This document shows positions 16,401 to 63,900 of a stretch of 64,000 bases of DNA, in pieces. The notes beneath the pieces were generated by a model, which saw nothing but the letters and a program-made list of their open reading frames with translations, searched no databases and was not told the DNA's origin. This stretch comes from Microbotryum violaceum (taxonomy: Eukaryota): positions 496,001 to 560,000 of the forward strand of contig CDLV01000016.1 of assembly GCA_001244265.2 (NCBI GenBank), read 5' to 3'. Made by a program: the position numbers and the translations under genes. The first letter of the stretch is position 1. Each line of letters begins with the position of its first letter.

Positions 16401-16732
16401 ATCATTTCGACGCAATCAAAGGCTCTCTCGCTAGGCCGATAGGGGACAGGAACGCTGGCGGATTAGTTTCCGTTCTTTTCTACGAGCTAGAAGAGGAGTC
16501 ATTGAACTTCTTGCAAGCCTTCAACCTAATGCTAACGCGGCAGTGGCACGAAATGTGGAGTCTATACCATGAGCCCTCCGATCCTACCGATATCCGCATT
16601 AAAGTGTCAAGTCTACCACCCAAAGGGACTCTTGAAGAAGGACAAGGTGTCTGGAAGATGGAAGATGCGTCGGCTTTTTTTCATGAATGCGAGATAGTGA
16701 GTGTCGGGAACGCCAAAAAAGCAGATCAATAG
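10430..16732 (+). pseudogene. MULE transposase with a GCM-like Zn domain and a C-terminal USP-like (peptidase C19-type) protease domain; spliced and disrupted
   Basis: GCM-like: RCMGVFVCC...CP...CPITSCNG...C...HSGYHLHP. MULE core: TDAH, VVDYSSAQ, GCAFHF, TTNAVESSH. USP-like: DNSCWIDS, LPRVIVINI, GVYNINNSHF, YHFDA, VLFYE. In-frame stops at 12524, 12635 and 16379, and a frame break near 13600. Exon boundaries are approximate. Confidence 0.75.
11317..11476. repeat. Two-copy direct repeat of about 72 bp inside the MULE
   Basis: aatcactYgttcctcRactatcggttctgacactgcgctgcg...ctaccgctgccacctMtataggt occurs at about 11317 and about 11405. Confidence 0.85.
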
Positions 16733-17694
16733 AGCTGACGATGCTCTCCTCTTACAATGTTTTCCAGCGGTGCAGTGCTCCTGGAGGAAATCACAGTGGG
16801 GAACATTCATGTTGATGGCAAGTTTGACTCACAAAGTTGTGCCCCAGTGGTCCAGTGAAGTTTTGGCCTTGTCAATCACTAATGTAGTGTACAGTAGGGG
16901 CTATGATAGCGGTCAGCAATAGTATGTATAACTAAACTTAGTGCAAAAATGGGCATGGCGATACTTTGACAACCACTGGTGTGCGGAAAGAGTCAATTAT
17001 TCACCAGCAGCAGCCAGTGCTCTTTGCGCGCGAGCGTATCCTTACGCATGTCACGTGCGCGCGCGGGCGTATCCTTACACATGTCGACACATGTAAGGAT
17101 ACGAGGGTGCGGTAAGGATACGGGAGGTGCGGTAAGGACACAGAGATTTTGAATCACTACAAGTCTTGCAATAGACATGCTATCATGTAGTCCTTGCAGA
17201 CACCATTCAGAAATAGTTATATGTTGATGTTACAATATCAAGATGAACAGATTTGGTTGTGTATTGACCTTAACTCATGTGTAAGGATATATCCTTACAT
17301 GTATACAAGCCGCTCGCGCGCGCGGTCTAGGCTGTAACTTTGAATGTATGCCTGAGGTGTCGAAGCGCTATATTTCAAACTGTGGTGATTTTTGAAGCCG
17401 ACTCCGTCTCCAGAGTTCCGACTCAGCTTGCAGTGACCTGTCACCTTTCTACACCGATAACGAGCCAAGTGTAGCGATACAGCGATAGTCCCAGCCCAAG
17501 ATGCAACATATCTTGACTCAGCCGAGAGTGCTTTGAGCTTCACTGGACTCGTGGTCGAACTTCAAGAAGACAGACAGCCATGCAGCATTGAAGTTGTCAG
17601 ACGCCGAGTTCCGACTCCGACGTGAGGAATTGAGGTGACCGACGACGTGGCCCGTGTGCTTCCTGCTCGCGGGCTCTCGCGGGGTCGTCCCGCT

Positions 17695-32872: not shown

Positions 32873-32902
32873 AGGGAGAACCAGGGCGAACCAGACCAGA
32901 CC

Positions 32903-34381
32903 TAAGCTCAACTAAGCCCTCCCTCTGGGAGGGGTTAGGACTTATCGGCGCGCCTGGCCCCGTTGCCCTCCGAAATTTCAGGGCCATTTTAGGGTGGTTC
33001 TCTGTAGCATGGCAAGTACTTACAATTATCCAAAACGCAGAAATGGTATTGATCTGCTACTAGAAAGGACTAGGGACTACAATTACAGAGTTCCAGGCGT
33101 GGCTCATTTGCAGTGGTGCATTGGGGCAGCAATCTACCGACGATACTTTGCGGATCCGTTGAAAGGATCGAAATATCAAGGTCGCTCTTTATCACCGCTA
33201 ATCTACTTGGCCGCAAAGGACTGGACCCCCAAAAAATTAAGGACTACAACCCGATGGAAAGGCTGCTTCGAGACACCGCTCAACTGGAGCTGTTGAGCTG
33301 TCTTCTGTGAGTGATATGGTCCCAAACTATGCACATAAAGCCAAGGGCAAAATGATGTTATGCCCTGCTAATAGCTCGTTCTGTTATGCATGCAGACAAG
33401 AACTTGGCCTCAAATCAATTGACGAGCTCAGAAAAACCCACCTCACTGGACTCGATGTCGCGATCATGAAGGTCTTCGATCGATACTGGCACTCTGACTT
33501 TGACGCTGTGCAGCGAGCAAAGGTGAACATGGAAAAGGCTCCCGTGTTCTATGACTCCGTCCTTCGGCTGCGCGACTTAGTCGATTTCGAGGAAGCGTAT
33601 TACGCCACTTTGCAAGGAGACATTGGTCGACTCATACATTGTTGGGAGCGCATGTTTCCCTTCCTCCAGGCCGCTGAAGGCGTTTCCCACTACCGAACGC
33701 ATCTGCCACACTTACTCCTTCTTCTTAAGTCCTCGCCAAATTTGTCGACCAAAAGGAGTCCGAGCTTCTTGCGTAACTCAATCGGGTCAACGCGATCTTC
33801 TTGAGTTAATTGTGATCTCCAGTGAGCAGCCCGAGAGCAGCCCGAGAGCAAGGGTTAGGCAGTTCGGGGGTTGTTTGGTTGATTGATGGTCCCTCGACGT
33901 CGTTGGCTTTGCCCTCGAAGCTGATCGTAAGGACGCTCTGAACTCAATCGATGAAGACCGACGAGGTGTGCCCTTGACAGGCGTTGGCGTTTGTACGGGT
34001 ATGGTGGATCATGAGGGCGGTAGCGACGTCGTGGACTGGCGTTGTGGACCGAAGGTGAGACCGGTGAGGCGCGGCTGGCTGATTCACGTCGGCGCGAAGA
34101 ACCGTCCCTCTAGGTCCGTGCGCGAGCCAGCTCCAAGTCGAAAATAACGACTTCTCACCCCTGTAGCTCAATGAATAGGATTCCCAAGAGCGTTCCCTTG
34201 GGGTATATGCTCGAAAAAATAGCATAAGAGTAAGTCTTTTGCAACGATTGTTTAGGTTGTTTTTGTTTGCCATGCTACAGCAAGGTGGTACTTTTCTGGG
34301 CCAAATTTCGATAGGCAACTCAGCCAAAAGCGCGGATAAGGTACAAGCCCCTCCACAGGAGCGAAACCGGTTTCGAGCTTA
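32903..34381 (+). mobile_element. AcademH-like DNA transposon, internal deletion derivative
   Basis: Termini TAAGCTC...GAGCTTA with imperfect TIRs of about 110 bp; perfect 9-bp TSD gaccagacc (32894-32902 and 34382-34390). Coding remnant VPGVAHLQW...LRLRDLVDFEEAYYATLQGDIGRL resembles DUF6589-type transposases. Confidence 0.8.
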
Positions 34382-35370: not shown

Positions 35371-35970
35371 GGGATTTCGGCGGCGGGAACCGATGTTGGT
35401 TGTATCGATTCGGCGTCAGGCGGCGCAACGAGGGCGCGTGGCCTTGTACGACATTGATGAGTCGAAGAGGGGGTTTGACGACATGGTGTTGGAGTGGTGA
35501 AAGTCGTTTAGGACTTGCAAGTGCATGGAAGGAAGGAAAGAAAATATCGGGTTGAACAGCCCTATTTTTCATGCGCGCGGGCCACGTCTACGAGCGCGAG
35601 CGCAGTAAACAACATTGCGCTTGGACCGCGCCCGCGTTGGTCACGTGCTGTGGCGACGCACCCGACAGACGCGCCTCGAGACACAGAGGCCGAAACGCGC
35701 GGCCGGATTAGGCGGCCGAAATCGGTTCAGAACTCGCGCGCGAGGACAATAAAAAGCTGGAGTGTGTGGATAGCCCGCCGCCCAGAGGCTCCCAGAGGTG
35801 CCAGAGGTAGCCCTAAATTAAGTCCAAGAGTCGCTGCCGAGCTGTTGCGATTTCTCCCGCTCGCGCACCACGCCCCGTGTAGTCTCGACAAGACACCACA
35901 CAAAACGGCACTGGCCGAGTCCGAGCGATCTTGACCACGCTCTTGTACGACTTGCCAAGGAACGTGTGCC

Positions 35971-39356: not shown

Positions 39357-40002
39357 CTTGGGAGTCGATCGGCGGCCGAAACATGCATACTAAACTATTC
39401 AGTCCTGCCTACTCCTGATGATGGCCATTGAAATTTTACCCCGAACGCTTTAGAAATACCACAACATACCACATCTGGCCAAATGGTGGAAGATGCAAGA
39501 CTTGTAGAAGTGGGCAACAGGAGCAGACCGGCACGACCTACAGCCCGAACTTGCCCGGACAGGCCCGGAAGACTCCCGGAAGGGGCACGGACTGGCACTG
39601 GACTGGCACGGACCGGCACGGACTGGCAGAGACCTGCACAGAAGAAAAAACTGCACAGACGGGCCGTCTGTGCCACCTGGTCAAATTAAGCCTGCCAAAA
39701 AAACTAAGGTCGCGCGCAACGCGTTAAGGCAGCTTTTTTGAAATTTGGCCCAGGAGAACGTTGGTACAGGCATGGTATACCACATCCCCCCACGGCCCGC
39801 GCCTAAGCTCGACGCCCCTCCCTTTGGGAGGGGCTTGTTAGTTATCGCGCGCTTGGCCCAGTTGCCCTCCGAGATTTTGGCCCTGAAAAGTGCCCCTTTG
39901 CTGTAGCATGGCATATATTGGTGCTATCTGAAAACTGGAGGGATACTTATTTACTTCATCATTATTGATGATGCTTCACCGAAGTTTGAAGTCTAGGAAC
40001 GC

Positions 40003-41600: not shown

Positions 41601-41947
41601 GATCAAGCCGAACGGAGCAGGCTCACCGATGATGAGAGCGCCAATTACACGATGCGCTCGGACCATCTGAGGCCCGATCGACCGAAATCGCAGACTTCGG
41701 ATTGTTGTAGCTCCACCCACAGCTTATGAAAGATCTCGCCAGTTGGGGTATGTCATTTTTAGAAAACAAAGAAAAATACTGTCCCTCACTTTTGCATGAA
41801 TGCGCCTACTTGCCATGTTACAGAGAACCACCCCAAAATGGCCCTGAAATTTCGGAGGGCAACTGGGCCCTGCGCGCCGATAACTCGTAAGCCCCTCCCA
41901 GAGGGAGCGCTTAGTTGAGCTTAGCCCGCGCCCGGAGGCAGAATAGC

Positions 41948-42213
41948 TGTAAGGCCAGTGGCCTTACAGAAGGATCGCGAGTACTGGACCGATCGACTCG
42001 TCGTATTCGTTGTCCTTGAAGAGGTATTGTAGACTGTATTCTGGTTTCAGGATCGGTTCGAATGAATGTGTTCCTCTAAGAGGGAGAGAGAGGACCCAGA
42101 CTGAACTACACAAAAGGGGGAAACCGGCCAATAATGGTCCAATATTCGGTTAACCGGGTTTCGGCCAGATTCAGTCGTTGGTCATGCGCGTGCGAGGCCG
42201 CTCGGGCCTCACA
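41948..42213 (-). repeat. 3' LTR, 266 bp
   Basis: About 3 substitutions relative to the reassembled 5' LTR; adjacent to the PPT. Confidence 0.95.
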
Positions 42214-45200
42214 TCCTCCTTCCCAAATCCAATTTGATTGGATTTTCTTCAGTACGGGTGGCTCCTGCCTTTGCCTTTTGACCTGGGCAAGAGTTCGCGT
42301 CGTTCCGTGTCGAGCTGTGTTGTCGCGAGCTTCGCCGCGGCTGTTCTCGTCCGGATTTGTTCGAGCTTGAGGAGAGCTTCGCTCTCCTTGATTTCGTCTG
42401 AGATGTCGAGCATGCTGCGATCGTGTCGCACGCGTTGCCGTTTTCCTTCGACCTCTTGGTCCCGTAGTTGTCGACGGTTGAGATGACCCGTTTCAGCGAG
42501 CTCTGCGCGTTTTCGTTCCTATTCAATGGGGTGTTCATACTCATCTGGTCAGTCGCGTCCACGTTTGTTTTCGCCGCGACTGCATGTTCCTCCTGTCTCA
42601 CAAGAGCCTCGAAAAGCGTGATTTCGTTGACTGCCATGTGCATGTCCAACCATCGATTGAGTGGCGTCTTGTAACCGGCGTGGTATGCGTCCCATAGGTC
42701 GCGGACCATATCGTCCGTCGTTTGCAGAGTGTCGCTGCGTTCGTTTTTGTTGTCGCTATACTTGACATGGTATCGGAGGCCGGTCCCGTTTCGGGAAATG
42801 TTAATCACGTTCTTGATACGTGGAGGGGGGTTGCGCTCCCCGAGGCCGGACTTGGCCGGGGCTTGACGGTGGTGAAGGCGTAAGATTTCGCTCCATTCTT
42901 CACGGTTCTTGAGTGAAGCCACGGTGATGGATTTGTCATAGCTAGGTTCATCGAAGTCGGGCGAGGGACTCCGTTGGATGGGAGCCGTCACCTGTTGTTC
43001 TGGTTCGTCGGCGATTGTTTCAGTCACGGGTGCTGGTGCCGCTTGGACCGCTTCCGCTGGCGCAGGTGTCGGCTGTGTTGCACTCGAAGTGACGTCTTCC
43101 CCGATGAGGTCTCCGTATTTGCCGTATTCGATGTCGTCTCGGTTTTCAACTTCCATTTGTTGATCTGTCTGGATGTTGTCCGTCATTGTGACGCCGTCGA
43201 TCGGAAATAGTGGTTTGGGGTTGAAAAGGCGGTTGGGGAACCGGTTTTCGTCTGTGGCGACCCACTTCTTTACTTGACTTGCGTGAAAGCGGGGGTGGAG
43301 TCGTCGTTGGGCGTAGCGTGGAGAGAGTTCCAACGTATACGTCAATGTGGCCGGAGTGAATGCCACACATTTAAATGGGCCAGCCCAAGGGGGGGTCCAT
43401 TTGCGTGATCGGTCAGGTGCACAAGCGAAGTTCGCTGTGCGCACTAAAAATAATTCTCCTATCGCGGTCTGAAGCTGTGCGTCAGGTTTCCGCTTTCGGT
43501 CGGCAATGACTGCCTGTTCACCACGTGCTTTCAAGATATTGTCTCTAGCGCGTGATCGTCGTTGCATCGCTCAGTCAATCAATTCGCCGGCGGCAGTGCC
43601 GTCGGGAGGCCGTGCCCAGCCGGGTACGTTTTTCGGTGCGACAACTCGAGCTAGCTCGTAGGGCGAATACCCAGTGGAGGAGCTTTTCGTCGAGTTGATG
43701 CCGTGTACTACGAACGGTAGTTGGTCAGGCCAGTTCGTGTGCGTTTCGTTTACGATCTGCCTCATCATCGCGTTGAGATCTCGGTGCATCCGTTCTATGC
43801 GTCCGTTCGTTTGAGGATGAAAGCTCGTGCTCAGCAGTAGCGTAGTGCCTAGGCCTTCAAACATGGATCTCCAGAGATCTGGAGTCCATCGCGGATCGCG
43901 GTCAGACACAATCTGAAGCGGTATGCCCCAATGAGGGAACACAGATTGGAAAAACAACTCTGCGCATCCCTTCGCGGTAATCGTCTGCTCGCAGGGCACG
44001 GATATGGTTTCTCCGGTGAAGGTGTCAATCCAGTTACATAGGAATCAACCTCTTTTCCGTTCCATTGAGCTTTCACAAGTGGGCCTTGAAAGTCCACTGC
44101 GATCGTCTGTCGCGGACCTGCCGGTATTGGCATCGAGTGCGGTTGCCGCTGCGCATTTGCGTACCGGTCTTGGAGACTTGGCATGCTTCGCAGGTCTTGC
44201 AATATTCTTCGATATCTGCACTCGTAGTAGGCCACCAGTAGTGATGTGCTGCGTGAGCCAGCATCTTTCGGCTACCAGTATGTACTGTCATCTCGTGTAC
44301 GTGTTTCAACACGAGTTCTCGGACTTTTCGTCCGTCCACGGTGCCGGCTGCAATGCACAGTCGGTCGCCGTAAATTTCGTCATTCTGCCACAGAGCGCCA
44401 TCAGCGCTAAGGGTGTATCGATCGAAATCATCAACGGTGGTCACGATCTTCTTGAAGAAAGGATCGTTCAGGTAGTCCGTGGCTGCTTGCCACGTCCTGT
44501 CTCGGTGCTGAGGGCCAAGGTTCAGAGCTTGATCGGTGGGGATTCCACCTTCCTCCTCGAGTCGCGCAGCAATCGCGTTTTCCTTGCGCGACATTTTCTT
44601 CGGCTTAGGCTTCGCCACCTTCGCCTTCGGTGCTGTCTCCACCGCTGGAGTCTTGGTTTGTTCGGTTTGTCTCGGCTGAGCGAGACGACTACTGCGTCGG
44701 AGTGTTTCGGTCTGCAGAGACTGCAGCCTTGATCCTAGTAGCAAATAATCGTCACGATCATGTTCCGTATCGAGATCGTCAAGGTTTGGGTCCTCATACG
44801 AGTCGCAGACGTTGTCATCCTCGTACTGGCGGGAGAACATGTCAGGTGTTTTGTTCCAATCGCTTTCGATATGTCTGATGACAAAATCGAACTGGGATAT
44901 GAAGTTGTAGACCCGTGCTTGGCGCTCGTTCATCTGTCGCGCCGTTAAAAAAGATGCTAAAGATTCATTGTCGGTAATCACTGTCACCTTGCGGCCCAGA
45001 AGGATATTGTGAAACTGCTGAAAGCCTTCAAAGATCGCAAGGAGTTCAATCTCGTGCGTTGGATAGCTCAACTGCGTATTTGTCAATTTTCTCGAGTGAT
45101 GGTAAACCGGGAGAGCGTTCCACCAGTTTTCACCGTAAGTCACACAAGCAGACGTGCCGACTGACGACGCGTCGCATTGTAAGAAAATGTATTTGCCCGG

Positions 45201-49697: not shown

Positions 49698-50601
49698 ACG
49701 TTCGCTTCTGTTGTCGGCGATGGTATCTTCAAGTATACGAGGGTTAATTACGTCCTCTACTTAAAGCAGTTACTTCGTCCAGCGAAGCAACGTGGTCGTT
49801 TTCAGAAAGTGAGGTTTGTGCCTTTCCACTCAAGAGTAAAAATTGACACGTCTCGCTACTCACGCCAACACTAGGTCGACGCTTTCGCAAGCGTGGGTTC
49901 GTTGCAAGCAACGGGGTTTCCTGTCTGTTTTCAGAGCAGATACCTTTTTCAAGGCAGACCGCCTTCTTCAGGGGATCAGTACAGGAGGTACTATGCGGAG
50001 TATCTTGAGACTGCTGGTTGTAAAGGTTGTCGATCGGCTTGTCCTCCAGCGATGGTTCGGTGTCGAGTTCGGGGTTGCTGAAGTCCAATAAAAAAGATGT
50101 AAGGCCGGTGGCCTTACAGAAGGATCGCGAGTACTGGGCCGATCGACTCGTCGTATTCGTTGTCCTTCAAGAGGTATTGTAGACTGTATTCTGGTTTCAG
50201 GATCGGTTCGAATGAATGTGTTCCTCTAAGAGGGAGAGAGAGGACCCAGACTGAACTACACAAAAGGGGGAAACCGGCCAATAATGGTCCAATATTCGGT
50301 TAACCACCTCTGGCTATATATATAAGCACGCTAAAAAGTGGCGCGCGCCTCCGACCCTCGCTTCCGCGCGACGTAGCCATACATGTTGCCCCACCTGCAA
50401 CCCGGGTTGCTGGATGGCCCGAGGACTAGGGCAACTTGCTAATGAGATTGACCTATTATTAGGGAGTACTTGTGCAGTCGCCCGCAGAGCTGTCTCTTCA
50501 AGCCTCCCCCCGCTCAGCGCCAAATCAGACCCGCCTCAGTTCTAAGACGAGCACCAACTATTGTAACACACAGTAATACATTCTCGGATTTGCATCAGAC
50601 A

Positions 50602-53600
50602 ATGGGCAGGCATAAATGGAATCGCTTCAAGTTCCGACCTGACTACTTCGAGGGACATCCTGACTATAAGCCCCGACGCCTTCGTTCGGACCCTCAACTC
50701 CGCACCAACATCCCCGGAACCCGGCACATGGTTACGTACACTGCGCGCCAAATTCAGCAAAGAACCTTCAATGAACATGCTCGTGGCGAAGCTAGCTCGC
50801 CGTCTCCTCGGCCTCCAATGGCCCCTCCGATTCAGGCCGATTTCGACGAAGCCGCCAACCCGAGTGGGATGGATTGGGATGATGAACGCCACAGCGAGTA
50901 CGGTGGTGGCTATGAACGCGACTTTAGTCCGGCCCCATACTTTCCGGATCGAACATCCCATATACCAATCGCGCCTGACTATAGTGCAACCGCCGAGCGA
51001 TTATCACTGGCTGATCTGCGCCAAGACGAAAGTTTCGAACCAGCCACACGTGGTCAGTCGAAGCAAGAAACGTACAAGCAGTTCGTGTTTAACGACTCTC
51101 GTCTTAGGCGCTTGGAACGGCCAGCGCTTCTGCGCCAGTATATCGCGTTTTGCGCTGGGGTCAAAGGTCATCTACGGCCCTTGATTGACGTGGACGAGGA
51201 GCTGTGCCAGGGTTCGGTCGCTAGCGAAGTGCCGTCGCCTTGTTCATGCGAGAGCCCCCTCACATTACTGCTTGACGTGTACGACCTCATAAGCTGTGTG
51301 TGAATAAGGCAAGTTGGGTCACTGTGTCGAATAACGCGCTGACAAGGTCGAATCGATGCAGTGGTCGAGGTACCGATCGCTTTTTGACCGAGATCCAGCA
51401 GCGATAGCCCATGCCTTACGTACGCCGAGCGCCTTGCTCAGATCGGATTGATCGGATCGACCGCAGCTGCTCCTCGCTCTGCCTTCACCTTTCGATTTGT
51501 ACAATTCCTCGACTCCTGGTGGAGCACCGCGCCGTTTCCTGTTGATGGAGCAGCTCGCGGGCTCGACATTTTCTATGAGCAAACTGGATGGGGTCAGCCG
51601 GGCCTGAGTCAGCATAAATTCGTGAGCTCGACCCCCTGTCATGGTTGCTATTGATCATTATCTGATATTTATCATCGTTCGCGCAAAACAAGGAGCTGCG
51701 AAAGCAACTCCAGCGCGCCCTTGACGAATTTCGGGCTCTCACGACATCCGAGCGAGAATTGGGCGACCTCGTCCTCGGTGTCGCGGGTTCTCTCTCGGAT
51801 AAGTGTCCAGCATGCTACGGATCGACGCGTCTAAATCAAGCCCACCATAGAGTCGAAGTGCAGCATCTTGTCGCTCTGGATGGCAACTTCCAACATTCTC
51901 GCGACACCTCAGCCAAATACGATTTTCAGGAGTCGACGCCAGCCCTCTTCATCGGCGAAGGCGAGCTCGAATCGATGAAGGAGATCTGTGATGGTGGCGA
52001 CAGCAAGAAGTCAGAAAAGGTCCGCTGATCCGAGCCGCCCCCTGCGATTCTTTCAACGCGCTGACGCCCTTCCTCTCGCGTCTTGAAGGCCTGTGCCGAT
52101 TCGTGGAAAGCGGCCAACGGCGGTGCGACACAAATCTCGCGGGGCAAGTCCGATACGGGCCTAGTTGCCTGTGTTTGCCGTCACGATATCGCGTTGAAGA
52201 TGGTCAATTTGTATCAATCAGGCGAAAAGTTCGTCAGCTCAGCTCCTCTTTCAACCGCTTACAAGGCCTGACGCTCGATTTTGATGAGGCAGGCGCTACT
52301 ACGGCTTATCGCTGCTGCAACATATTTCGAACCAACTCCCTTTCAACGATACACTCGGAGTGCTGTGTGATGTTGCGTGTAATTTGGACGGCTACATGCA
52401 ATCGGTCAGGAAGAGTGGCGGATCCGTCGTTTCTTAGATTTCTGGCCCTGGGGCGCCGCTGACCTGTACTGTACTTCGATCGCCTGCAGAGAAGTATCCT
52501 TCCCGATCTGTTTCCGAGATTGAAGTTTGCCACGAGCGTGTTTCATGCTGTTGCTCATCAATGGCCCTGCCAGCTTGAGTACAACCCGCGCCTGATTCAG
52601 CACTTTGGGTTGACGGATGGGGAGGGATGCGAACGCGTTTGGAGTCAGCTCCGATCGCTCATCCCGATCAATCGTCCTGCGAGCGCTTCTCACCGGCGCG
52701 TCAACATCTCGCGTCGCATCGACCTGATGAACAAGAACGGTGTTGACAGCCTCGGTATGCTCTGCCATCCACACTTTCACGCCGTGTTCGTTACTTAATT
52801 GTGCGGTCCCTTCGAATGCTCAAGATCAGCTTGGAAGGGCACAAACTGATCTGAGTGATGTTTCGGCAATATGGTCCGAGTCTGACCTTCTCGCGCAATG
52901 GGATTTACAACGAGCTGCTCAAGCGGCCACAACGGCGGGTCAACGTCGGGAGAACGAGGACAAGGAGCGATTAGAGCTGTTTAACATTGTACAGAGGCTA
53001 CACCACGTGGAAGGAAGGCTGTACGTTCGGCGCGTCAAACCCCATTGGAGGACGAGGGCGTAAAATTGACACTGTGTCTTGGCATTGTGTGTTCAGATTC
53101 GATCCAGTGGCTTCCGATGAAGCGAAGGCTCGCTTGCAGCAACAGCTAAGAGCTTACCAACAAGAATACGATCGCACGAAGGAGCTTGCAGCTTCAGGTG
53201 CGGCGCGCGTCCTATCTTTATGAGTATCGCCACTTGATGTTTGATGTCCCATGACATACCTAGATTTCCAGCATTTGTGCAACTGCGTAGTCAAACTTCG
53301 CGCATTACACAAAGCGACGGTCCAATTGCAATGCTGTCAAGAACGAATTGACTCAATGGGTCGGGGACGAAGCTGCGCGACAATCGGTCAAGTCGAAGCC
53401 AGCAAGCTTGTCAGCGTCTCACAGACGCACAGCAAGAAAGTAAAAGTGGCAATCGATATGTACAATAAAGCGGTCGGGGATTACCGAAATGCTGCGACCG
53501 AGCAATCGGCCCAGATTCTGGACAACTTACCGCTCGCTACCACAATTAAGTCGCTTGTGACTCTGTCGCCAACGGACGCTTTCTGGCAAGACGGTTTTTT

Positions 53601-54475
53601 CGTACACGACACTGGGCCTTGGGCGATTGATACCGATGTTCAGAAAGGGATCAAGGCGGTTTTACTCAAAGCCAGGGCGGAAGAAGAGATTCTCCGGATC
53701 GGAGCTGAGGTTCGACAACTACTTGCGTGGCTCGAAGATGAGGACACTCGCTTTGTTAGGGTATCTCAGGCATGGGCAGAGGACCGAGGTGAGATGGACA
53801 CACCCTTTCTTTGTGTTGGTGCTGTACCTTACGTCGCCCCTTCTATTAGTTCCCGAAGAAACGATCGAAGCGGCTAAGAAACTTCTCGGAACTGACGGCG
53901 CGGGCGAGGTTGGCACTGCGGTGTGGCATGTGCTTCAACGCCGGCAGATTTCGCTCAAAGAGCGTCTGGATCAGCTCGCCGAACGCGATGATCTCTCGGT
54001 TGTCTGGTTTAGGACGCGTTTACCCGCAGTTCATGAATCGCGGCCCTCGGCATTTGGTTTGATCGGGGGACTTTTCGCCGGACGGGCGAAACAGGTGTCG
54101 CGCCGTTCGCGCGGTAGTCCACGTCATTTCGGTCGCCGCCTTTCGACGCTAAATAATACTCAAATGCAGAGCCCCATCGCTGAGTCGAGCCGCAGCTTAT
54201 CAGGTCCTTCTGCCGTGGACGTGCGCCACACACCCATCGACCTCGACGCATTCCGAAGGGAACTTGGCCTGACCCCCGATCCAGCCGCGGAGCAGGCCGA
54301 GCGAGACCGTGGTGACGTGTATGAAAGACGAATGGAAGAACTTTTGGGTTCACTATCGGAGCAGGAGGTCGAGGAAGAAGATGATGCTGAGCTCGGGGAG
54401 GGCGGCGGAGAGTCAGGCTCGACAAGGAGTGAAGACTCGGACGACCTCGAGATTCTCGACGAGCCCATGGGCTAG
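50602..54475 (+). CDS. KDZ transposase with a CxC1-like N-terminal region (multi-exon; possibly inactivated by a TGA near 51384)
   Basis: GLIGSTAAAPRSAFTF, KCPACYG, VALDGNFQHSR, DTGLVACVCRHD, SGEK, DVAC, FHAVAHQWPCQLEYNPR...GLTDGEGCERVWS, RAEEEILRI: canonical KDZ motifs. Confidence 0.9.
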
Positions 54476-55007
54476 CTAGGGATGGTTTGGCGCATTTGTT
54501 GACTGTAGATTATTTGTTATTGAAGGACTTTGCTTTTTGTATGCGGCCCATATCACACATGGTAGAATGTGGACGCCAGTGCACAAAAGTAAAATGGATG
54601 TCAGCCTTAATGAGGCGTTGACGTGTTGACGACCACGATCCCACGAGCCGGTCGCCACGGCCACACTCACCGAACTGCAGCAGTACGTGACAAGCTTGAA
54701 GGTTCTGCTAAGTTGAAAACTAAAAATTGGTGCGCATCGGTGCTGACATTTGCAGGTTCAGGTTTGGGAACGTTGCCAGAGGGGGCGGGGGGCGGTGAGG
54801 ATTGGTGTTGCTGTAGTTGTTCTGTTCCAACAGCACCCCGAAGTGCGTCCAGACCCGTCCAACGGCGCTCCGTTGTACAGTGCTTGCGATAATATGTCAG
54901 CAAAAATCAATGAAATACGTCACCGCATACCTACTCCGTTGACGTGATAGTTTATGTAGTCGAGTGAGCAGGGATATTGGTCTATCGGCCAAGGACCTTG
55001 TAGGGGC

Positions 55008-55225
55008 TGTGTACTCCCGGGGTACACATACACAGAGTCGGCGCGCGACAAGAGTGTAACCCCGGGGACCCGGCCTGTGCCGTCGACAAAGCTGTGTACT
55101 CCCGGGGATACACAGTCATTCGGCGCGCAGGGTGTGATCACTCCCGGGGTACACAAGGCGCAAGCGGGGTCCCCCGGGAGTACACAGGCGCTTTCCCGCT
55201 TGCGCCTTGTGTACCCCCGGGGTGC
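55008..55225. repeat. Cluster of palindromic TGTGTACYCCCGGGRGTACACA motifs
   Basis: About six full or partial copies here, with further copies at about 55780, 55816 and 57651. Confidence 0.8.
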
Positions 55226-55290
55226 CAAGCCGGTCACCGGTGGCAGATCACTGTATAATAACATGTCCGATTCTACAACGGCAGGCGGTT

Positions 55291-55740
55291 AATCCTTTCG
55301 GTAACTTCAGACACATCCTGGGCTTTGAGCGGGAGCGTGGAAGTTTGTTGTAGTGCAGTTTCGCTCTGCTCGGTAGTTCGAACGGAGATTCAGGTAGGGA
55401 GTGCGTTGGCCTTGCGGGCTTTTCAGAGTGCAAGTCGGATGTAGCAAACGAATCTTTCGTCGGTCTTGTCGCAGGAGGGTATCCCTTCAGTAACTGCAGA
55501 CACATCCTGAGCTTCGATTGGGTGCGTGGAAGATTGTTCTAGTGCAGTTTCGCTCTGCTCGGTGGTTCGAACGGAGATTCAGTTAGAGAAGTGCATGGGC
55601 CTTGCGGGCTTTTCAGAGTGCAAGTCGGATGTAGCAAACGAATGTTTCGTCGGTTTCGTCGCAGGAGGGTGTTCCGTTCAGTAACTGCAGACACATCCTG
55701 AGCTCTGAACGGGTGCGTGGAAGTTTGTTGTAGTGCAGTC
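55291..55740. repeat. Tandem repeat, about 2.3 units of 190 bp
   Basis: gtaactKcagacacatcctg...gcgtggaag...tagtgcagt recurs at 55301, 55490 and 55681. Confidence 0.9.
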
Positions 55741-56106
55741 AGCAAGGACGTTGGCGACGGGCCGCGCCTGAGCCGTGGAACCCCGGGAGTACACAGCTGG
55801 AGAGGGCACCGGTCATGTGTACCTCCGGGGGGTACACACCGCCACGCCGGTTGTACAGTGCTTGTAAAAGTGTCCTAGAATCGATGAAGCATGTCGTCGC
55901 ATACCGCTTCCTCGTTTCCGAAGGCACAAGACTCTGTTGTAGTGTATCTACGCCCTGCCCTAAGGTTTAAGATTGAACTAGAATTTCCGCCTTCGGAGTG
56001 CGTTGTACCTCGGAGTGAATCATGATTGCAGAGCAGGATCTCCATTAACACAACATACAAGCTAGACAGCTACACACGCTCACGGAAAACTCGGGATGGT
56101 CATCGC

Positions 56107-57589
56107 CTAACCGGTGAATTGACACTCATGGTGCCTCATGTCCCAGTATCCAGGCCGCGCTCCAGCTCGCTCAGACTGGTCAGCTCGGAGAGGGTGGAGA
56201 GGTTGCTTTCGGCCTCCGAACCGGCTGCCGATCCGTGGTCGGAATGTTGGCCGGTCGCCGAACTGTGTTCCGATATCGCGTCCTCCTCGTGCCCCCGAGG
56301 TCGACGCGGCGCCCTCTCCGCCGGACCCCTTCTTGCGCATCCAACAATACGCGTCCCTCTGTTTGCTCGACAGCGCCAACCACATGTGGGCACACTCAAC
56401 AATCCAGGAGTCCCAGATCTTCTTCCTTTCGGGCTCGAGGTCCGCATCGGTGGGCGGCTTGGGAGGTTCGGGAACGTGGACGAGCACCGTCGTTGCAAAT
56501 GGTCTGAGCGCTGCTTGCCAGGTGCGATGTTCGCTTTCTAACTGATCCCGGTAATCGTCCGGGACACGTTTCCCGAGAAAAGGGCGGTACACCTTTCGGA
56601 TCCATCTTAAAAGGCGGTCACTCCCCTTCCTGGTCCTCGTCGGTCCTTACATCGTCCTCAGGGAGGGGGCGTTGGCACTCTTGGTACAGGGGTGAAAGGA
56701 TTTCACTGAATAGGCGCAATTCCTCATGTTCGGCGGCAATGTCGACGGGGACGGTGAAGATGCGCGCTCGGATATCGTCGAAGTCTTGGATGCGGGGCCT
56801 ATACTCCTTCAAAACTCTCGCACTCCCTCCACCTCTCTTTCGCTTCTGGTTATCGTATGCATCGAACAACACGTTCCTCCAATGGATGAGCACGGTCAAC
56901 AGGCTCCGAGGCAGACGTCCATTCCCTTTGTACCCTGCCCATTCATCCCAAACAGGCCACATGACGTAGTCGATCTCCTCCCGGACCTCATAGTTAAAAT
57001 TTTCGACGTCCTCGGGGATTGGGTCTTGAGTCATGATGTCTTTGGGTTCCATCACCAGCCGACGCGCCCTTTCCGCCGCCCACTCGTCGTGCCTCGCACG
57101 GCCCGCTTTCCCCGGCGCCTCCAACATGTCAAGCTTGGCCTGCAACTGCCGGCGGTATCTTTTCTTTAGGTGGCCAAAACCCTAATCAGATCAGATAAGT
57201 ACATCAACAAAGGTTTAGCCGAACTCCACATAGTTTGTTTCTGATCTCCTGGGAAAGCTGTCTAGCACTCACTGCTTGGACCTCACGGTCGGTACCGATC
57301 AGCTCAAACGCCGCCTCGTTGCATCTGTACCGACTGTCGACCGTAGACGAATTGAACGCGCGCTTGTGTATACGAATGATTTTTTTTTTAGGTTTCGTTT
57401 GGCCTCATGTGCATGTTCCGGTGCTACCGTTGGTCCGTCGAGTGACCTGTACCCTCCAGGCAGCTTGTAGTGTTTGTTGCAAAGTTCACAACGGACACGC
57501 CATTGGCCGGACTCGTCACGGATAAGATCGATGAGATGCGAGTCGATGTCGAGCCAGGCGCGCTCGCCCTCAGTGGCGCGTGGTGCCAT
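56107..57589 (-). CDS. Unknown spliced cargo gene of KDZ-B with an N-terminal CxxC zinc-finger-like motif (possibly frameshifted at a poly-A tract)
   Basis: Protein-like colinear frames 57589-57300 (WRVRCELCNKHY), 57145-56618 and 56592-56107, separated by plausible GT-AG introns. Confidence 0.55.
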
Positions 57590-58733
57590 GTTGGAACTTG
57601 GAGTGGGGGTGAGGGGTGAGATCGGTGAGAGGGAAAGAGCAGTGTCCCAATGTGTACCCCCGGGGTACACGTCGCGCCTCGCTTCACCTCACGTCACCGA
57701 GCGCGCGCGCTCTCCTCTCACAGCATCACCGACACCGCGCGCGTCACAGCCGATCCGATCCGATGCCCTCAGCGAATCACGACAAGTTACAATCAGCGAT
57801 TCTCTCTGCAGGACACAAAGGTCAAGGTCATCGAGTATTTGCACGAGACAAGATATACTGGCCACCTGGCACATTGCCTGTCCCAGGCGGGAAGCAACCT
57901 GAATACGTAGTCGGCACCGAGCGCGTCGGACCTATATGAAAGCTTGCAGTGTATGCAAGCGACTCGGCCAACAACGAGCTTTGCTACTACGAAGTCATTG
58001 ACGCCTCAGCACCAAGCTGCCATTATATCGATGCCGAGTTTACGCGCCCTTCCATTGACAATTCAGCAGAAAAGGCATTGATTACGCGTAATGCAGCGTC
58101 GTATTTCCCTGGCACATATGGTCAGCTGGCCAGCTCGGACACCTTGCGATCTTGCGTCTGCAGGTCAGAACTGCCGAACTACCTTGTTCCCTGCTTCTGT
58201 TTTATATCTGTTGTTCCAGCGTCAACGAATAATCTCGGCTTTCATTCTCACTGCGGGCACACCGTTTGGAGAACCCAACGCGAAGCGTGTTATTACGGAC
58301 ATTCTCGACAGCTTGAAGGTTCTGCTCTCACTTCGCCAACGTCTCGGGGGGTCCGAAGGGGTAGTCGGAGAAATTTGGGTGCTTTGCTGTTGTCACCCCC
58401 AAGCTCTGGGGCGAGCTTAACTGCAGTTTGACATTAGGTAGGATGCGTGAGTGCTTTATTTGGACATCCATTAAATGCCTGAATTGAATGTCCGGAGTAA
58501 AGTCTGAAACGTTAGGCGTCAGTAAATCTATTTGCTTTGCGATCAAAATCGCGTCGCATAATTGATCAACGGACGAATCAGCTAGTCAAGATGCGTGGAA
58601 ACTTGTTGAATACCTCTTGCCACACACAGGTCAATATCACCTCAACGACTACAAAAAGTTTGGCCATCTATCTCAACGCGCGATAGGCGCACCAACAATA
58701 TACTGAACAACAGAAATGTAGTCGGATTCGGAA

Positions 58734-60300
58734 TCAGGATGTTGCAGCTCCCGAATCAGCATCAGAATCGGAATTAGAATTAGAATCAGAACCAAGATCA
58801 GAAGCAGAAGCAGAATCAGATCCAGAGACTTGGTCTTCTGGCTCCGTTTCCAACTGTCCGGTTGTCACAGTACCTTCGGCACGAGTGCGGTCAAAAGAGC
58901 CCTGGCCTATCTCCTCTTTGAGTGAGAAAGTAAGGCCACCCTGTCGCATCAGAGGGATGATTCTTCTCAAATCCGCAACGGTCGGCTTCTTGCCATTTGT
59001 GGGACTGCGGAAATCACGCTCTTGAAGACCATTTCCGAACTCGACAATAAGAGCGATTGGATCCTTCGCAAGAGTTGCCTGGTTATAACTCGTAAGCTTG
59101 GAAAGCACGTAGGGCTGAGTAGATCTATTTCTCTGGTGGCGACGACGGGGCGCTTGATCTGCACGGCCACAGATGTTCAGTACTAGGCTGCAAAGTGTGG
59201 GCGCAGAGCCGTGGAATGGTTGCTCACTATAGTGATCGTCGATTATGATGCTATACCATGCGCAGAGCACTCGTTGAGACGCCTTATCAACATCGCCATG
59301 ATTAGCTGCTCATCAGATTTTGGGATCAGCGCCAATCCATCACTGAGCACAAAATACGTCCTAAAGCTTGCTTGACAAACCTCGCATCTTATATTGTTCA
59401 TTTTGCCCCTGATTAAACCGAGTCCCATTAACGCAATCCGTGAAGTTGACTAGAATATCTTTTTGCTGGTCAGAATCCCAGCCTTGGCGCCGCATGAAAG
59501 CTGCGCCGCCAAGCGTAGAAACGATAAAACGATCATTTTTTTGTTCTCGAGCTTGTTCGAGCTGACGATGACTAACGCGTCGAAGCCGTAGCCCTCAGTA
59601 TACTGCTCAACCTAATTCGGTGCCGAGCTACGTAAGTCAGCAGGGGGAACTTGGCCTCTGAGGAGGCGGAAACGGAGAGCCGAGTCTTCACGGACCAGCT
59701 CGTTCATCGCATTTTCGTATCTGCACCGCAGTTTGGAGATGGTAGCAGAATCCATTCGCCATCGCTTGAGGGGCCGAGCGGTCTCCTTTCGATCACGCGC
59801 TTCACTTGCCCTCGCTTCCTTCCATTGTTCCCAGAGTTCTGGTGAGTTTTTGACTTGTTCCCAGTAGCGTGATCCAATCGCCTGTAGCGCAGAGAAGTCT
59901 TTCGGGACTTTGTAGGGGTCCGAGTGATGGATTTGTCCGTCAGAGTAGCGTCTTGTAATGGAGAGTAAACGGTTTTGGGATGAGTCAGGAAGGCAGACGC
60001 TACACTTACCCTCGAGTCCGTTCTTTTCGAGGAGACAACGGAAGAAGCGGCTGGTCTTGAAGTCATTCCAGTCGTTTCGGTCGTTGCTTCGAGTCGCAGG
60101 GGGCGTGTACGAGTCGAGATCGTCGTCCCGAACTCCATGCCGCAAACAGTATTGCATCTTTTCGAGGCGACGTTGCAAGTTATAGAGCACGTGGGTCTCC
60201 TTTTGCGACGATGACAGGCGCGAAGTCGAAGGCAACGCTCGAACGGCATCGTGGAGGGCTCGGATCTCATCCTGAACCTCTTCGATTCGATGACTCATTG
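58734..60300 (-). CDS. KDZ-B companion gene, helical/HMG-box-like protein with an acidic SD-repeat tail (spliced; one apparent frameshift near 59540)
   Basis: MSHRIEEVQDE...RNDWNDFKTSRFF...AIGSRYWEQVKNSPELWEQWKE; homologous to the 3366-4500 remnant in KDZ-A. The HMG resemblance is by eye only. Confidence 0.6.
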
Positions 60301-60724
60301 AGTTGGACGAGTTGGACGTGGTCGGCCTTGAGGCAAGCGTCGTGCTTCGTCCATCTTCCGCGATAGGAAGCAGAAATGTGGTGCTGTTGTGTCTGAACGG
60401 TCGCTGAGGACGACAGTACAGACCCCATTTCGGGGCTGCTGGTCGATTGCACCGAAGCATCTTCGGCGGTAACAACGAGGAATGAGGAGTAGGGTCAGCA
60501 GACAATAACAAAACAATCAAGACACGAGGACTCGTCTCACGGTCGGGAGCGGCAAACGCTGACGCGTTACCGGGATTAGACAGGAGAGGCAACATATCGT
60601 ATGGTCGGATGGCTTCGAGTCAAGATATACGACCGAAAGCGGAAGGGAACAGAAAGTAGTAAGACCAGGACTGTGATCCATAACGGCGCGTCAAGCGGCA
60701 ACGCTATCGCTCGCTCGCGCTCAG

Positions 60725-60969
60725 GTAATGATGTAATGATGTAATGATGTAATGATGTAATGATGTAATGATGTAATGATGTAATGATGTAATGATGTAA
60801 TGATGTAATGATGTAATGATGTAATGATGTAATGATGTAATGATGTAATGATGTAATGATGTAATGATGTAATGATGTAATGATGTAATGATGTAATGAT
60901 GTAATGATGTAATGATGTAATGATGTAATGATGTAATGATGTAATGATGTAATGATGTAATGATGTAAT
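60725..60969. repeat. Perfect octamer microsatellite (GTAATGAT)x30
   Basis: Uninterrupted array of 240 bp plus a 5-bp partial unit, inside KDZ-B about 160 bp from the right TIR. Confidence 0.98.
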
Positions 60970-63900
60970 AATCGAGCTTCTTCTCGCTACTAATCTAAAG
61001 AAGAAATTGAGGATGAGTGTTCCGAATATGCTTTATACGCAATGGCAGCATTTATAAGGTTGGATTACCCCGATACGAGCTCGCACGTACCTGAGATGAA
61101 CGTGTTGAAGGCCACACCAGCCTCCATGTTGCGCTAGTCCTCGGGCCATCCAGCAACCCGGGTTGCAGGGGGGGGCAACATGTATGGCTACGTCGCGCGG
61201 AAGCGAGGATCGGAGGCGCGCGGCGCGCGCCACTTTTTAGCGTGCTTATATATAGCCAGAGGTGCGGTTAACCGGGTTTCGGCCAGATTCAGTCGTTGGT
61301 CATGCGCGTGCGAGGCCGCTCGGGCCTCACAATAGCGGCTAAGTAGTGCACTTGCTAACTCGCCTACGCTAATCGGCCCTTTGCCCCAGCACATGGCACT
61401 GCAGTGGCACCCCCACCCTCCCCCACCCCCTTGCACTCATCGGCATCGCTTCAAGCATGGGCTCCCTGCGACACACACCGCCACTAGTAGGAAAAGACAA
61501 GGAAAAAGACACCAAGACCAAGTGTAAGAAATTCACGAGGCGGCGGAAGAAGAAGGCGGCTGACACGATCATCGAGAGCGCGGCGACCACGGGACCAGAG
61601 GAGGGGGGCTAAGAAGAAAAAGAAAAAGAACAAGATGAGGTCATGGCCCCGTGCGAGAACGAGAAAAGGAGCCAGTCTTGTCCCCGAAGAGCGAGGCGTT
61701 TGTGAAATCCTCCGGCTACGCTGCTGGCATTATGGTATAGCGATCAAATATGATATGACAATAAAGGCTAAGGTATGACTAAGGGCTTTTAAGGCACCAA
61801 GGCGAGAGACACGAGAGACTGCAGTCGGGATAGAATCGAACGCGAGACCGAGTTCGAGAACGAAACGCTAAGGTCGGAGACTGGAGACGATGCCGAACGA
61901 GACTTGAAACGCGCAAAAAGTGAGAGAGGAGTAAAAGTTGTATTGGATCCTGGAAGTCTTCTTGAAAACAAAAAGAAGAAAACTCCCCTCAAACGTCCCG
62001 GCAGTTCAAACCGCTGCTTTCTGTTCATTCCCCTTCACCGCTTCATCCGCACAACGGGCTCCGTCTTCCTTCCAAAGCCTGCCTCACTGATCCCACCAAT
62101 GCTCGTCATTTTCCGAGTCTTTGCGGCGCAAAAGTGAACGCCCGTTCGAAATCACATCCTCTTCCTCTCCCTCCCGTAAGCCGACTTAGCCTCCCTCCTC
62201 TCGTGGCCGCCGGGAATGACTCGTCGTCGAGACGCCCAAGTCCAGAGCTTACTGCCGCCACGACTTCTATTAGCCCTGAGAAATTAAAATAGCGGATGCG
62301 ACCGGATCCCGAGTACCACAGTATTCACGGCAACCCAACGAGGCCGCGTCCGACACGTCGACCGGTTCGGAGCCCACCTCCGTCGGAGCCATCGATCCCG
62401 AGCCTTGATTACTACCTGTGGCAGTGCACCCAAGGCACGGGCGAACAACAGATGGAGGGGTGCGTGGCGCTTTGGCTTTGGTGTACCGACGACGCTGAAC
62501 TTTTTCAGCAAACGACAGCGGATGGCCTGACTTCGGCAGCCCTGGTGACACGATTGATGAGACGGACGACAACACGAACAAAGGAGTTGACTTTGACATG
62601 AGTGATCATTCGAGCGACGATTTGATTCGTTACTCTATCGACGCCACAGCCAACGGTGCATTTGGGCTTGAGGAGTGGGACTTCAGTGCGGAAGATGATG
62701 GCAGTGATGACGAAACTTGGTGAAATTTTTAATGGCTGTCTGGAATCGAAGGCTCTTGTTCCAAAAGCCTCAATCCAAACAGATGATGTGAGCGCTCGCG
62801 TGCTTTTGCCTTTTCCATTGACTAGTGTCTCTTCATGTCATACAATATTGCCCTTCTCCCGGAAGTGCAGGGAATGCAAAGTAGCAACCATACGACCGAG
62901 AGGCAACCAACGCTGGCAGGGCTTGGCTACCGCTTAAATGCGCTCTAGCCCGCTTGAAAAGGTTACTGCCCAGCAGTGGTGCCGACAGCGGGAGGTCTAA
63001 CAGGTTAGCTAGAGATCCAGGAGGAAAGCTCTTTGCTTTTGGCGATGAGGTAAACGGGCATCTTCTTGGCTGCGCTTAGTGAGTGCGCTTTCAAATTTCC
63101 GCCATTGCGTTTGGTGTTTATAGCGTGCGCAGTCAGGCCAGTCAGATGCCCGAAGTCCGTGCCGGGTCTTTGTTGATACTTTCTGAGATCTCAGCAGGGC
63201 TCACATTGCTAATTATCAGACTCCGTTTACCCCCACACTCTAATGTGTACTCGGCTAAACTGGTCCCATACTCGATCTGTTTTTCGGTGCTTTTCAATGG
63301 TGTTGTCTTGGCCACTTTAAGCCACGCAGCCACTAAGACAGTTGTACGTTTACCTCGCCATTGGACTCTCGACATTTCAGATACATGACGACGCACTCAA
63401 TACCCCTGACAGGATGTATGTGTATGATTGAACTCATTCGTTTGATGATGAGAAATGAGTTTGACAATACACCGATAATATTTGTCCCGGTGCTGAGAAA
63501 CGGATGACTTCAGATGCCAATCACACCTGCGCCTTTCATGTGCTCTCTGCCGTGTGACCCGATCCGTTGCGTGCTCTCACCGGTACATGTACTACTGTTA
63601 TATCGTAAAGGCAGAAGCTCGGAGTTAGCTATGGACAGAAAAGTGGGGCGTAAACACCTGAACGAACATCATTGAGTCAGGATCACGATGTTGTTCTTCG
63701 TACGATACCATTCCTCCTCGCATCAGCCTGAGTGCACGAGTGGCCTGCGAGCTATTGTAGGCCTCCGACTGTTTCTACTGTCGACCAACGCAGCCTTTGC
63801 AGATGACAGTTCTGGTGGTATCTCAATCGGTCTCCTCGGTTCTGTTTTCTTGAAATCGTCTTTGTAAGAGCGAGGGTCATCACCAGATCGTACTGTAGTG

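Follow-up and report, generated by a model that had tools for sequence, protein, structure and literature searches.

A conserved second gene facing the transposase in two diverged KDZ transposons of Microbotryum

Why KDZ transposons carry genes besides the transposase is an open question in the field. In size these elements rank with the largest cut-and-paste transposons that fungi have, and they were recently shown to move in Cryptococcus, where their insertions led to drug resistance. A stretch of 64,000 nucleotides from Microbotryum violaceum (contig CDLV01000016.1, positions 496,001 to 560,000; hereafter the window) contains two such elements, KDZ-A and KDZ-B. Each combines a KDZ transposase gene or its remnant with a second gene, here called ORF2 (ORF, open reading frame). 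Is this second gene random cargo, or does it belong to the transposon? Our analysis supports a conserved partner gene common to the two KDZ lineages, and below we consider what its protein might do.

In both elements ORF2 lies at the end opposite the transposase and is convergent with it. This layout, including the homology of the two second genes, had been proposed in a preliminary description of the window, and it is borne out both by direct matches and by an independent hidden Markov model (HMM). The same description held that the two elements are little alike in nucleotides beyond their termini; indeed, blastn at E<=1e-5 finds nothing in common between KDZ-A and KDZ-B except pieces of a gypsy long terminal repeat (LTR). 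At the protein level there are three colinear matches. ORF-to-ORF comparison by blastp pairs the KDZ-A ORF 4252-4476 with the KDZ-B ORF 59364-59594 (43% identity over 42 aa, E 4e-7), 4835-4945 with 58737-59309 (55% over 22 aa, E 1.5e-4), and 3626-3889 with 59615-60619 (33% over 30 aa, E 0.11).

The independent HMM contains no A-type or B-type sequence. It was built from 12 other members of the family and run against every six-frame ORF of at least 20 aa in the window (1955 in all). Its 11 best matches all fall within the two ORF2 loci. Three of the ORFs concerned are in KDZ-B (E 2e-17, 2.1e-17 and 1.1e-13) and six are in KDZ-A (E 8e-16, 8.7e-4, 0.013, 1.2, 1.6 and 4.4), and the KDZ-A pieces follow the order of the profile along the plus strand (profile positions 133-174, 184-212, 265-332, 344-373, 371-396 and 403-424). 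The three colinear motifs previously noted at 3366-4500 are real and in order, with the correction that the KDZ-A copy runs on to about 4945. In addition, a single relative, P0017 (database proteins and their clusters are designated by P numbers), bridges the two copies, matching KDZ-A at E 5.5e-18 and KDZ-B at E 9e-8.

The gene architecture points the same way. The introns after the ..DG.. / VP.. motif and before the Y..F/G.E motif occupy the same protein positions in both copies, so that KDZ-A and KDZ-B agree in the position of at least the first and second introns. Divergence between the elements is similar for the two genes, with about 30-43% identity each for ORF2 and the transposase. The partner is not random cargo, because it is homologous across transposases of about 30% identity and retains the same position, the same orientation and at least the first two introns. 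A diverged ORF2 in the same place and orientation in a second KDZ lineage has therefore been co-inherited since before the lineages split and is not a recent pickup. Such retention of a same-placed partner argues that the gene belongs to the biology of the element itself. The observation made in the preliminary description is accordingly confirmed, and its interpretation, a functional two-component transposon, is partly supported: the exclusion of random cargo stands, while both window copies are broken and KDZ-B has a third gene. What can be said of the two-component layout is that a second gene is co-inherited across lineages, as seen in the arrangement of KDZ-A and KDZ-B and in two pairs of gene tags from M. 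saponariae.

These pairs join an ORF2 with a KDZ transposase on the same contig. On Chr2-1, ORF2 P0007 (Chr2-1g04307) and transposase P0026 (Chr2-1g04311) are 4 gene numbers apart; on Chr5-2, ORF2 P0008 (Chr5-2g07956) and transposase P0023 (Chr5-2g07961) are 5 apart. The paired ORF2 proteins are the two B-type single-member clusters that match more than one third of the query, and their partner transposases are also B-type single-member clusters. For the remaining single-member cluster, the fragment P0009 (Chr1-1g01238), which covers 28%, none of the listed transposase tags is nearby. Cluster member counts agree between the two genes and provide soft evidence: 10+1+5 for ORF2 and 10+1+5 for the transposase in M. 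silenes-dioicae, and 14 vs 15 in M. saponariae. The 3-4 gene numbers that lie between the ORF2 and transposase tags of M. saponariae would fit a third gene.

The transposase of KDZ-B is recognized by the Pfam KDZ family (PF18758), which matches the window ORF 52463-52795 at E 3.2e-22 (79.8 bits, cut-off 26.6). Its closest full-length relative, P0022 (1066 aa), matches the same family at E 4.2e-52, and tblastn places residues 1-1066 of this protein on KDZ-B in 8 pieces at 70-98% identity. The CxC1 cluster scores 19.4 bits (E 0.0012) in P0022 and 23.3 bits in P0024, both under the cut-off of 26.9, and rises above it (43.8 bits) in the sister-lineage transposase P0029. On sequence grounds the KDZ-A transposase is decayed: only residues 179-556 of P0022 are matched, at 29-32% identity and with 4 and 6 stops in two pieces. 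KDZ-B ORFs match KDZ-A at 8421-7126 with 38-57% identity.

The ORF2 family consists of proteins of about 450 aa encoded by a five-exon gene. An exhaustive HMMER profile search of 1,835,955,588 representative proteins, with a profile that included one A fragment, yielded 14 matches. Since that library carries no names, names were taken from word-indexed searches, in which every named match (9/9 and 12/12) came from Microbotryum. Four species are represented, namely M. silenes-dioicae, M. saponariae, M. intermedium and M. lychnidis-dioicae. All matches in the ESM Atlas were to Basidiomycota clusters without names, with scores of 0.93-0.95 when the whole protein was used and 0.83 for the three-helix module described below. 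By these searches ORF2 is a multi-copy family, found only in Microbotryum and split into about six diverged subfamilies: the B-type; P0012/P0020; P0011/P0031/P0033/P0038; P0013/P0032/P0034-37; P0017/P0019; and the A-type P0015/P0018. Seven clusters (P0011, P0013 and P0031-P0035, with 458-567 aa) are 42-51% identical to P0012 and cover 84-92% of it, and coverage kept at this level of identity argues for long-term selection on the protein.

A second indication of selection comes from differences between sequencing contigs and the window copy. We used the 31 differences that were listed, with 29 further ones outside the listing; 6 of the 31 are intronic (330 nt) and 25 exonic (1362 nt). Among the exonic differences, 11 are synonymous and 14 non-synonymous, compared with a neutral expectation of 23% synonymous (binomial p 0.017), and a rough ratio of non-synonymous to synonymous rates (dN/dS) is 0.38. 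This signal is weak: 29 differences are unlisted, several copies and species are mixed among the contigs, and differences are as dense in introns as in exons.

Contigs of public sequencing runs resolve most of the structure of the KDZ-B gene. Its introns of 102, 84, 75 and 69 nt have GT..AG ends on the minus strand, and its exons total about 453 codons. The model draws on contigs from several runs, of which X1 is a DNA run and X15-X18 are RNA by guess only. Contigs of X16 skip 59159-59227 (69 nt), 59306-59380 (75 nt) and 59612-59695 (84 nt); the joints as reported are 59158/59228, 59306/59383 and 59609/59694, the second being given as 76 skipped with one letter between. Two further X16 contigs break off at 59908 and resume in the last bases of exon 1, from which the intron 59908-60009 (102 nt) follows. 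Spliced joints are absent from X1, no joints occur in the X15 and X18 contigs, and X16 also holds unspliced contigs. Related intact copies of the B ORF2 are thus probably transcribed towards the interior of the element, starting at the end away from the transposase, and four introns are removed from the transcript. The published gene models are in conflict, intron 1 being retained in P0001 and P0004 and intron 4 in P0001 and P0003; P0003 lacks the third motif. Introns 1 and 4 are free of stops, and for this reason gene predictors kept them and the raw ORFs look long. The lengths of all four introns are divisible by three.

Both window copies carry damage. In the KDZ-B copy two small indels break the reading frame. 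At the first, the contigs have two extra letters, GC behind 60364 (X1, X16, X18) or CT behind 60365 (X15), and the segments MGSVL... upstream and IAEDG... downstream lie in different frames. At the second, a poly-A run, contigs of X1, X15 and X16 omit 2 nt at 59535/59536 at full depth, and NKLENK and NDRFIV lie in different frames. Correction of both indels restores the single reading frame of P0001. As it stands, the copy comprises three segments (21, 214 and 218 codons) that are each open but spread over two frames. The indels, -2 and +2, are about 830 bp apart. In the KDZ-A copy, WDTFRTSQYF (3773-3823) and LLEKL..DGID (to 3855) are in different frames, and no match to profile positions 425-457 was found, the most conserved C-terminal motif DLDRIIPLLR... 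being absent. The A-type relatives P0015 and P0018 map to this copy at 79-95% identity, with stops, and these database models are themselves fragments. The coordinates of all features are collected in Table 1.

Table 1. Features of KDZ-A and KDZ-B in window coordinates
Feature	Position	Strand	Basis or remark
KDZ-B	50305-61264	+	Complete transposon with terminal inverted repeats, 10,960 bp, CACCTCTGG...CCAGAGGTG
KDZ-B left terminal inverted repeat	50305-50438	+	Inverted match to right end
KDZ-B right terminal inverted repeat	61125-61264	-	Inverted match to left end
KDZ-B transposase gene, multi-exon	50414-54472	+	Pfam KDZ match and tblastn of P0022
KDZ-B third gene	56107-57688	-	Lies between transposase and ORF2; three ORFs (129, 187 and 179 aa)
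KDZ-B second gene (ORF2)	58734-60428	-	Homologs P0001-P0010, spliced contigs
KDZ-B ORF2 exons	60428-60010, 59907-59696, 59611-59381, 59305-59228, 59158-58737	-	Stop 58736-58734
ORF2 B region for WNDF...YW three-helix segment (possibly HMG-like)	59696-60070	-	Split by intron 1
ORF2 B frameshift, 2-nt deficit	60364-60365	-	Contigs carry two extra letters
ORF2 B second frameshift, poly-A run with 2 extra nt	59529-59536	-	Contig comparison
KDZ-A	2395-17359	+	Composite element, 14,965 bp, CACCTCAGG...CCTGAGGTG
KDZ-A second gene, decayed	3366-4945	+	HMM matches; A-type P0015 and P0018 map here
KDZ-A ORF2 colinear pieces	3626-3889, 3902-4066, 4252-4476, 4547-4831, 4704-4844, 4835-4945	+	
KDZ-A transposase remnant	8751-7126	-	tblastn of P0022

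What would such a gene do for its element? We read the KDZ-B copy as the resident second gene of an 11-kb KDZ-type Microbotryum transposon, and we infer, with about even confidence, that its protein helps the element's own transposition or expression. In the most likely version of this reading, the ORF2 protein would assemble the transposase at the ends of the element or guide it there, by analogy with TnpA of CACTA and the Myb-like protein of Harbinger elements. For this it would use a small three-helix module around WNDF...YW (possibly HMG-box-like) together with the better conserved C-terminal domain, RFIV.S.GG.AF ... DF.SP.G..K....DLDRIIPLLR.

CACTA/En-Spm elements encode the TnpD transposase and the end-binding protein TnpA. 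PIF/Harbinger elements of the Nuwa kind pair a transposase with a Myb/SANT DNA-binding protein, as stated in section 3.1.4 of PMC12730594. Like the partners in these two systems, ORF2 is conserved with the transposase across diverged lineages and appears to have its own transcription and splicing (again with the RNA nature of the run guessed). Unlike them, it has no Myb/SANT domain or similarity to TnpA, judging by the lack of any Pfam match.

Structure prediction offers weak hints of a fold. The ORF2 models are mostly helical, and in the AlphaFold2 model of P0012 one part is confident, residues 134-197, which comprise the WNDF...YW region and are predicted to form three helices (predicted local distance difference test, pLDDT, 83-89). 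A 147-residue stretch folded alone reached pLDDT 71.7 and a predicted template modelling score (pTM) of 0.44, with 79-90 for the module. As in HMG-box proteins, the predicted module has three helices and about 70 aa. VIA-align, run against 48,161 chains, placed HMG boxes in about 16/50 and 7/50 of the top rows for the two models. The best of them was the SSRP1 HMG domain (6l34), with 66/68 residues aligned, a root-mean-square deviation (rmsd) of 3.8 and Z 4.7, followed by LEF1 (2lef; 62 residues, rmsd 3.6, Z 4.2), UBF (1v63; 4.0) and TFAM (3fgh; 4.0). By eye we also see what we take to be the spacing of SOX and HMGB proteins: helix 1 carries N-[AD]-F and helix 2 carries K-x5-W-[KR]-x-[IL], the F and the W being some 32 residues apart. 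This resemblance is a lead, not a test.

Several observations weigh against this reading of ORF2 as a helper. The first group concerns the protein. Known domains were sought in ORF2 by Pfam and by PDB sequence profiles, and none was found: Pfam searches of 19 + 63 window ORFs and of family proteins gave no match for ORF2, and the two PDB profile searches gave 0 matches and 1 unrelated match. The HMG box suggested in the preliminary description thus failed at the sequence level in the family proteins searched, HMG_box (PF00505) being absent from P0001, P0003 and P0004 at E<=1 and from P0011-13, P0017, P0019 and P0020 at E<=5. The AlphaFold2 model of P0012, based on an alignment of 10 sequences, is weak overall (mean pLDDT 57.8, pTM 0.29), and the better conserved C-terminal half, with motifs 2 and 3, is poorly modelled and gave no informative match. 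The HMG boxes share their Z values (3.5-4.7) with helical chains unrelated to them, and the tool treats only higher values as meaningful. Foldseek against PDB returned no match at E<=0.001 and no HMG box for either model, its weak rows being MADS/MEF2 and GTF2I at E about 2. A net basic DNA-binding surface is a feature of HMG boxes. Unlike such proteins, the three-helix module of ORF2 is neutral to acidic, with net charges over 80 aa of -2, -1, -5, +2 and +1 in five members, and it has no sequence-profile or Foldseek match.

The second group concerns the DNA and the copies. Arrays of short subterminal repeats, which would be expected for an end-binding protein and which belong to the two-component pattern of CACTA and Harbinger, were not found within 400 bp of the ends of KDZ-B. 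Among the 9-10-mers there, none recurs 4 times or more except those of the (GTAATGAT)n microsatellite and of motifs common to both terminal inverted repeats (TIRs). As read, neither window copy of ORF2 encodes a whole protein, and the KDZ-B copy would do so only if its indels are assembly errors. The joints in X16, whose RNA origin is a guess, could also come from an intron-less DNA copy. Only 2 of the 10 representative B-type ORF2 tags pair with a transposase tag, although the rest, with one visible tag per cluster, do not count as negative. M. intermedium, which is reported in PMC10502011 to be without TIR elements, has a half-length ORF2 member (P0020). Finally, the density of differences given above is the same in introns as in exons.

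The main rival to an accessory factor at the ends or the transposase is an anti-silencing role. ORF2 would then be a long-standing passenger, comparable to TET/JBP genes, that aids element or host indirectly by countering silencing or RIP-like (repeat-induced point) mutation, or through host chromatin, and that takes no part in cut-and-paste. We regard this as possible but rather doubtful. Fungal transposons, KDZ included, do carry non-transposase genes that are thought to counter methylation (according to the relevant sections of PMC12730594), and the extra domain-less ORFs of Cryptococcus KDZ1-3 are discussed as possible cargo in passages of 10.1101/2024.08.15.608186, but ORF2 resembles neither TET/JBP nor any enzyme family. 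A passenger would suit the lack of subterminal binding-site arrays, the non-basic helical module and the fast evolution of the protein, the B ORF being 46-65% identical to M. saponariae proteins vs 94-98% for the KDZ domain. However, a core gene would account at least equally well for a position, orientation and intron layout that stay the same across transposases of about 30% identity.

The comparison with TET/JBP-carrying KDZ elements can be made more specific. As described in sections of PMC12730594, these include the Dileera element Zisupton-1_PGr in Puccinia and Kyakuja in Agaricomycetes. KDZ-B shares with them the superfamily and an extra internal gene, as well as the 8-bp target site duplication (TSD) reported there for Dileera/Zisupton. 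In contrast, ORF2 is not a TET/JBP dioxygenase: none of its proteins matches any Pfam family, and the Tet_JBP double-stranded beta-helix domain is therefore not among their matches. The Kyakuja families described in those sections differ further from KDZ-B in having 7-bp TSDs and no TIRs. In the sections concerned, this survey of TET-carrying transposons (Kojima 2025) describes no gene like ORF2 and mentions Microbotryum only for TCG hypermutation.

A captured host gene or gene fragment that drifts neutrally, with the motifs common to KDZ-A and KDZ-B as a residue of common descent, seems improbable to us. The broken state of both window copies, the fragmentary nature of many database relatives (P0002, P0009, P0014, P0016, P0015, P0018), the equal density of exon and intron differences and the lone half-length copy of M. 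intermedium would all be compatible with drift. However, full-length open copies persist in at least 4 diverged subfamilies at 42-51% identity, reading frames are open in the spliced forms, synonymous changes are in excess (p 0.017), and no single-copy host homolog outside the multi-copy family was found among 1.84 billion representatives. Last, a chance match of short motifs with no shared gene is ruled out: taken alone, the direct matches at E 1.5e-4 and 0.11, two of the three, are short and weak, but the independent HMM reaches E 8e-16 in KDZ-A with six colinear pieces and P0017 links the two copies.

Returning to the helper reading, a more ambitious version can be formulated that we think unlikely, though not negligibly so. 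According to it, KDZ elements would be two-protein machines as a rule. ORF2 would be an architectural factor required for movement, with a divergent HMG-like module and a C-terminal domain, that bends or pairs the element ends or docks the transposase. The extra ORFs of Cryptococcus would be its structural counterparts. The TIRs, each with a start coding for MARGLAQ, would act as mirror-image promoters that drive both genes towards each other.

For Cryptococcus neoformans, the elements KDZ1, KDZ2 and KDZ3 (PQ181658, PQ181660, PQ181661) are described in passages of 10.1101/2024.08.15.608186 and 10.1101/2025.05.19.654958 as about 9-11 kb long, with TIRs of 139-241 bp, 8-bp TSDs and a KDZ + CxC1 transposase; further genes without predicted functional domains are present, and KDZ1 has three coding genes. 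KDZ-B closely resembles this description in its 10,960 bp, TIRs of about 135 bp, 8-bp TSD and three coding genes, and it shares with the giant KDZ elements the size of about 9-11 kb, the KDZ transposase and domain-less extra ORFs, having two extra genes; the CxC1 cluster of its lineage scores under the Pfam cut-off. Unlike the Cryptococcus elements, it comes from a different subphylum. The ORF2 profile matched no protein of Cryptococcus at E<=0.001, as judged indirectly from the 14 matches of the 1.84-billion search, whose library is without names, and from the named matches of the other searches, all of them Microbotryum. Conservation of an extra ORF between KDZ lineages, as found here, is not reported in those passages on the Cryptococcus elements. 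Giant KDZ elements with extra ORFs were thus already known, and what is added is that one extra gene forms a conserved family with an exon model. This model makes direct functional tests of ORF2 possible, though the result is a modest one for specialists, in which function is inferred.

The third gene of KDZ-B is unlike the ORF2 family, lacks a counterpart in KDZ-A and has no Pfam match. Compared with the ORFs in the second half of KDZ-A, it likewise shows no similarity, and those ORFs are also unlike the ORF2 family.

The boundaries of both elements are marked by the motif CACCTCWGG, which occurs at 6 sites in the window vs 1.10 expected, a number reached in 1/100 shuffles. Four of the 6 sites are element ends: 2395(+), 17359(-), 50305(+) and 61264(-). 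The other two (CACCTCTGG), at 2869-2877 (-) and 35792-35800 (-), have nothing that marks either as an element end; about one site of this type is expected in the window by chance.

KDZ-B is flanked by an exact 8-bp TSD, CGGTTAAC, at 50297-50304 and 61265-61272. Its TIRs of about 135 bp align in inverted orientation (50297-50438 vs 61274-61125) with 89.5% identity over 152 columns, TSD included. With its TIRs and 8-bp TSD it conforms to Zisupton, Dileera and Cryptococcus KDZ1. The host site is one LTR of a Ty3/gypsy element (pieces 50092-50304 and 61265-61331) whose internal part extends over about 42.2-49.8 kb on the minus strand. Two empty sites are available in the window, since the target is uninterrupted at 42147-42154 and 9774-9781; the corresponding LTR copies, 41942-42216 (the other gypsy LTR) and 9575-9843 (inside KDZ-A), are continuous across it. 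The insertion is recent, because the gypsy element that received it has LTRs 97.7-100% alike.

An ATG followed by MARGL(A/G)Q is present in both TIRs of KDZ-B (50414-50434 and 61149-61129). It starts the transposase model P0022 in the left TIR and the ORF2 models P0001 and P0003 in the right one, and the transposase model P0024 begins later, at MGRH. The TIRs may carry promoters, or first exons, in mirror image. Between ORF2 and the right TIR, 60725-60969 is a perfect microsatellite, (GTAATGAT) x 30.6, and the gene models P0001 and P0003 splice across it. Tandem repeats of similar period lie in corresponding places in both elements, between the transposase 3' end and ORF2, at 55281-55739 in KDZ-B (189 bp x 2.4) and at 5988-6683 in KDZ-A (183 bp x 3.8); the two repeat units, when compared, show no significant sequence similarity.

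KDZ-A has ends of 49 bp that are 96% alike, and its flanks, TCGAAACG and TCGAAGCG, match at 7/8 positions of a target duplication. Its KDZ part extends from 2395 to about 9930, with a second part beyond that carries unrelated ORFs. In the interior, at about 9841-10216, two truncated subterminal regions are joined head to head at a GCGCGC palindrome. One is the left subterminal region in inverted orientation (9841-9929) and the other the right one in direct orientation (9917-10216), each without about 35 bp at its terminus. In the right half (9917-17359) there are inverted repeats of 300 bp with TGTAAGGATA repeats, as well as long plus-strand ORFs (10089-16729) without Pfam matches or a KDZ domain. 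The 7/8 match of the flanks suggests that the entire 15-kb element moved as a single unit.

Outside the two elements, host genes for a P450, an RNB exonuclease, Cox11, an MIF4G/MA3 protein and a DEAD helicase are intermixed with transposons. The ORF 33241-33801 matches DUF6589 (E 1.8e-11), and short repeats are common to 32901-33018, 39802-39877 and 41807-41924, which together suggest another DNA transposon family among the host genes.

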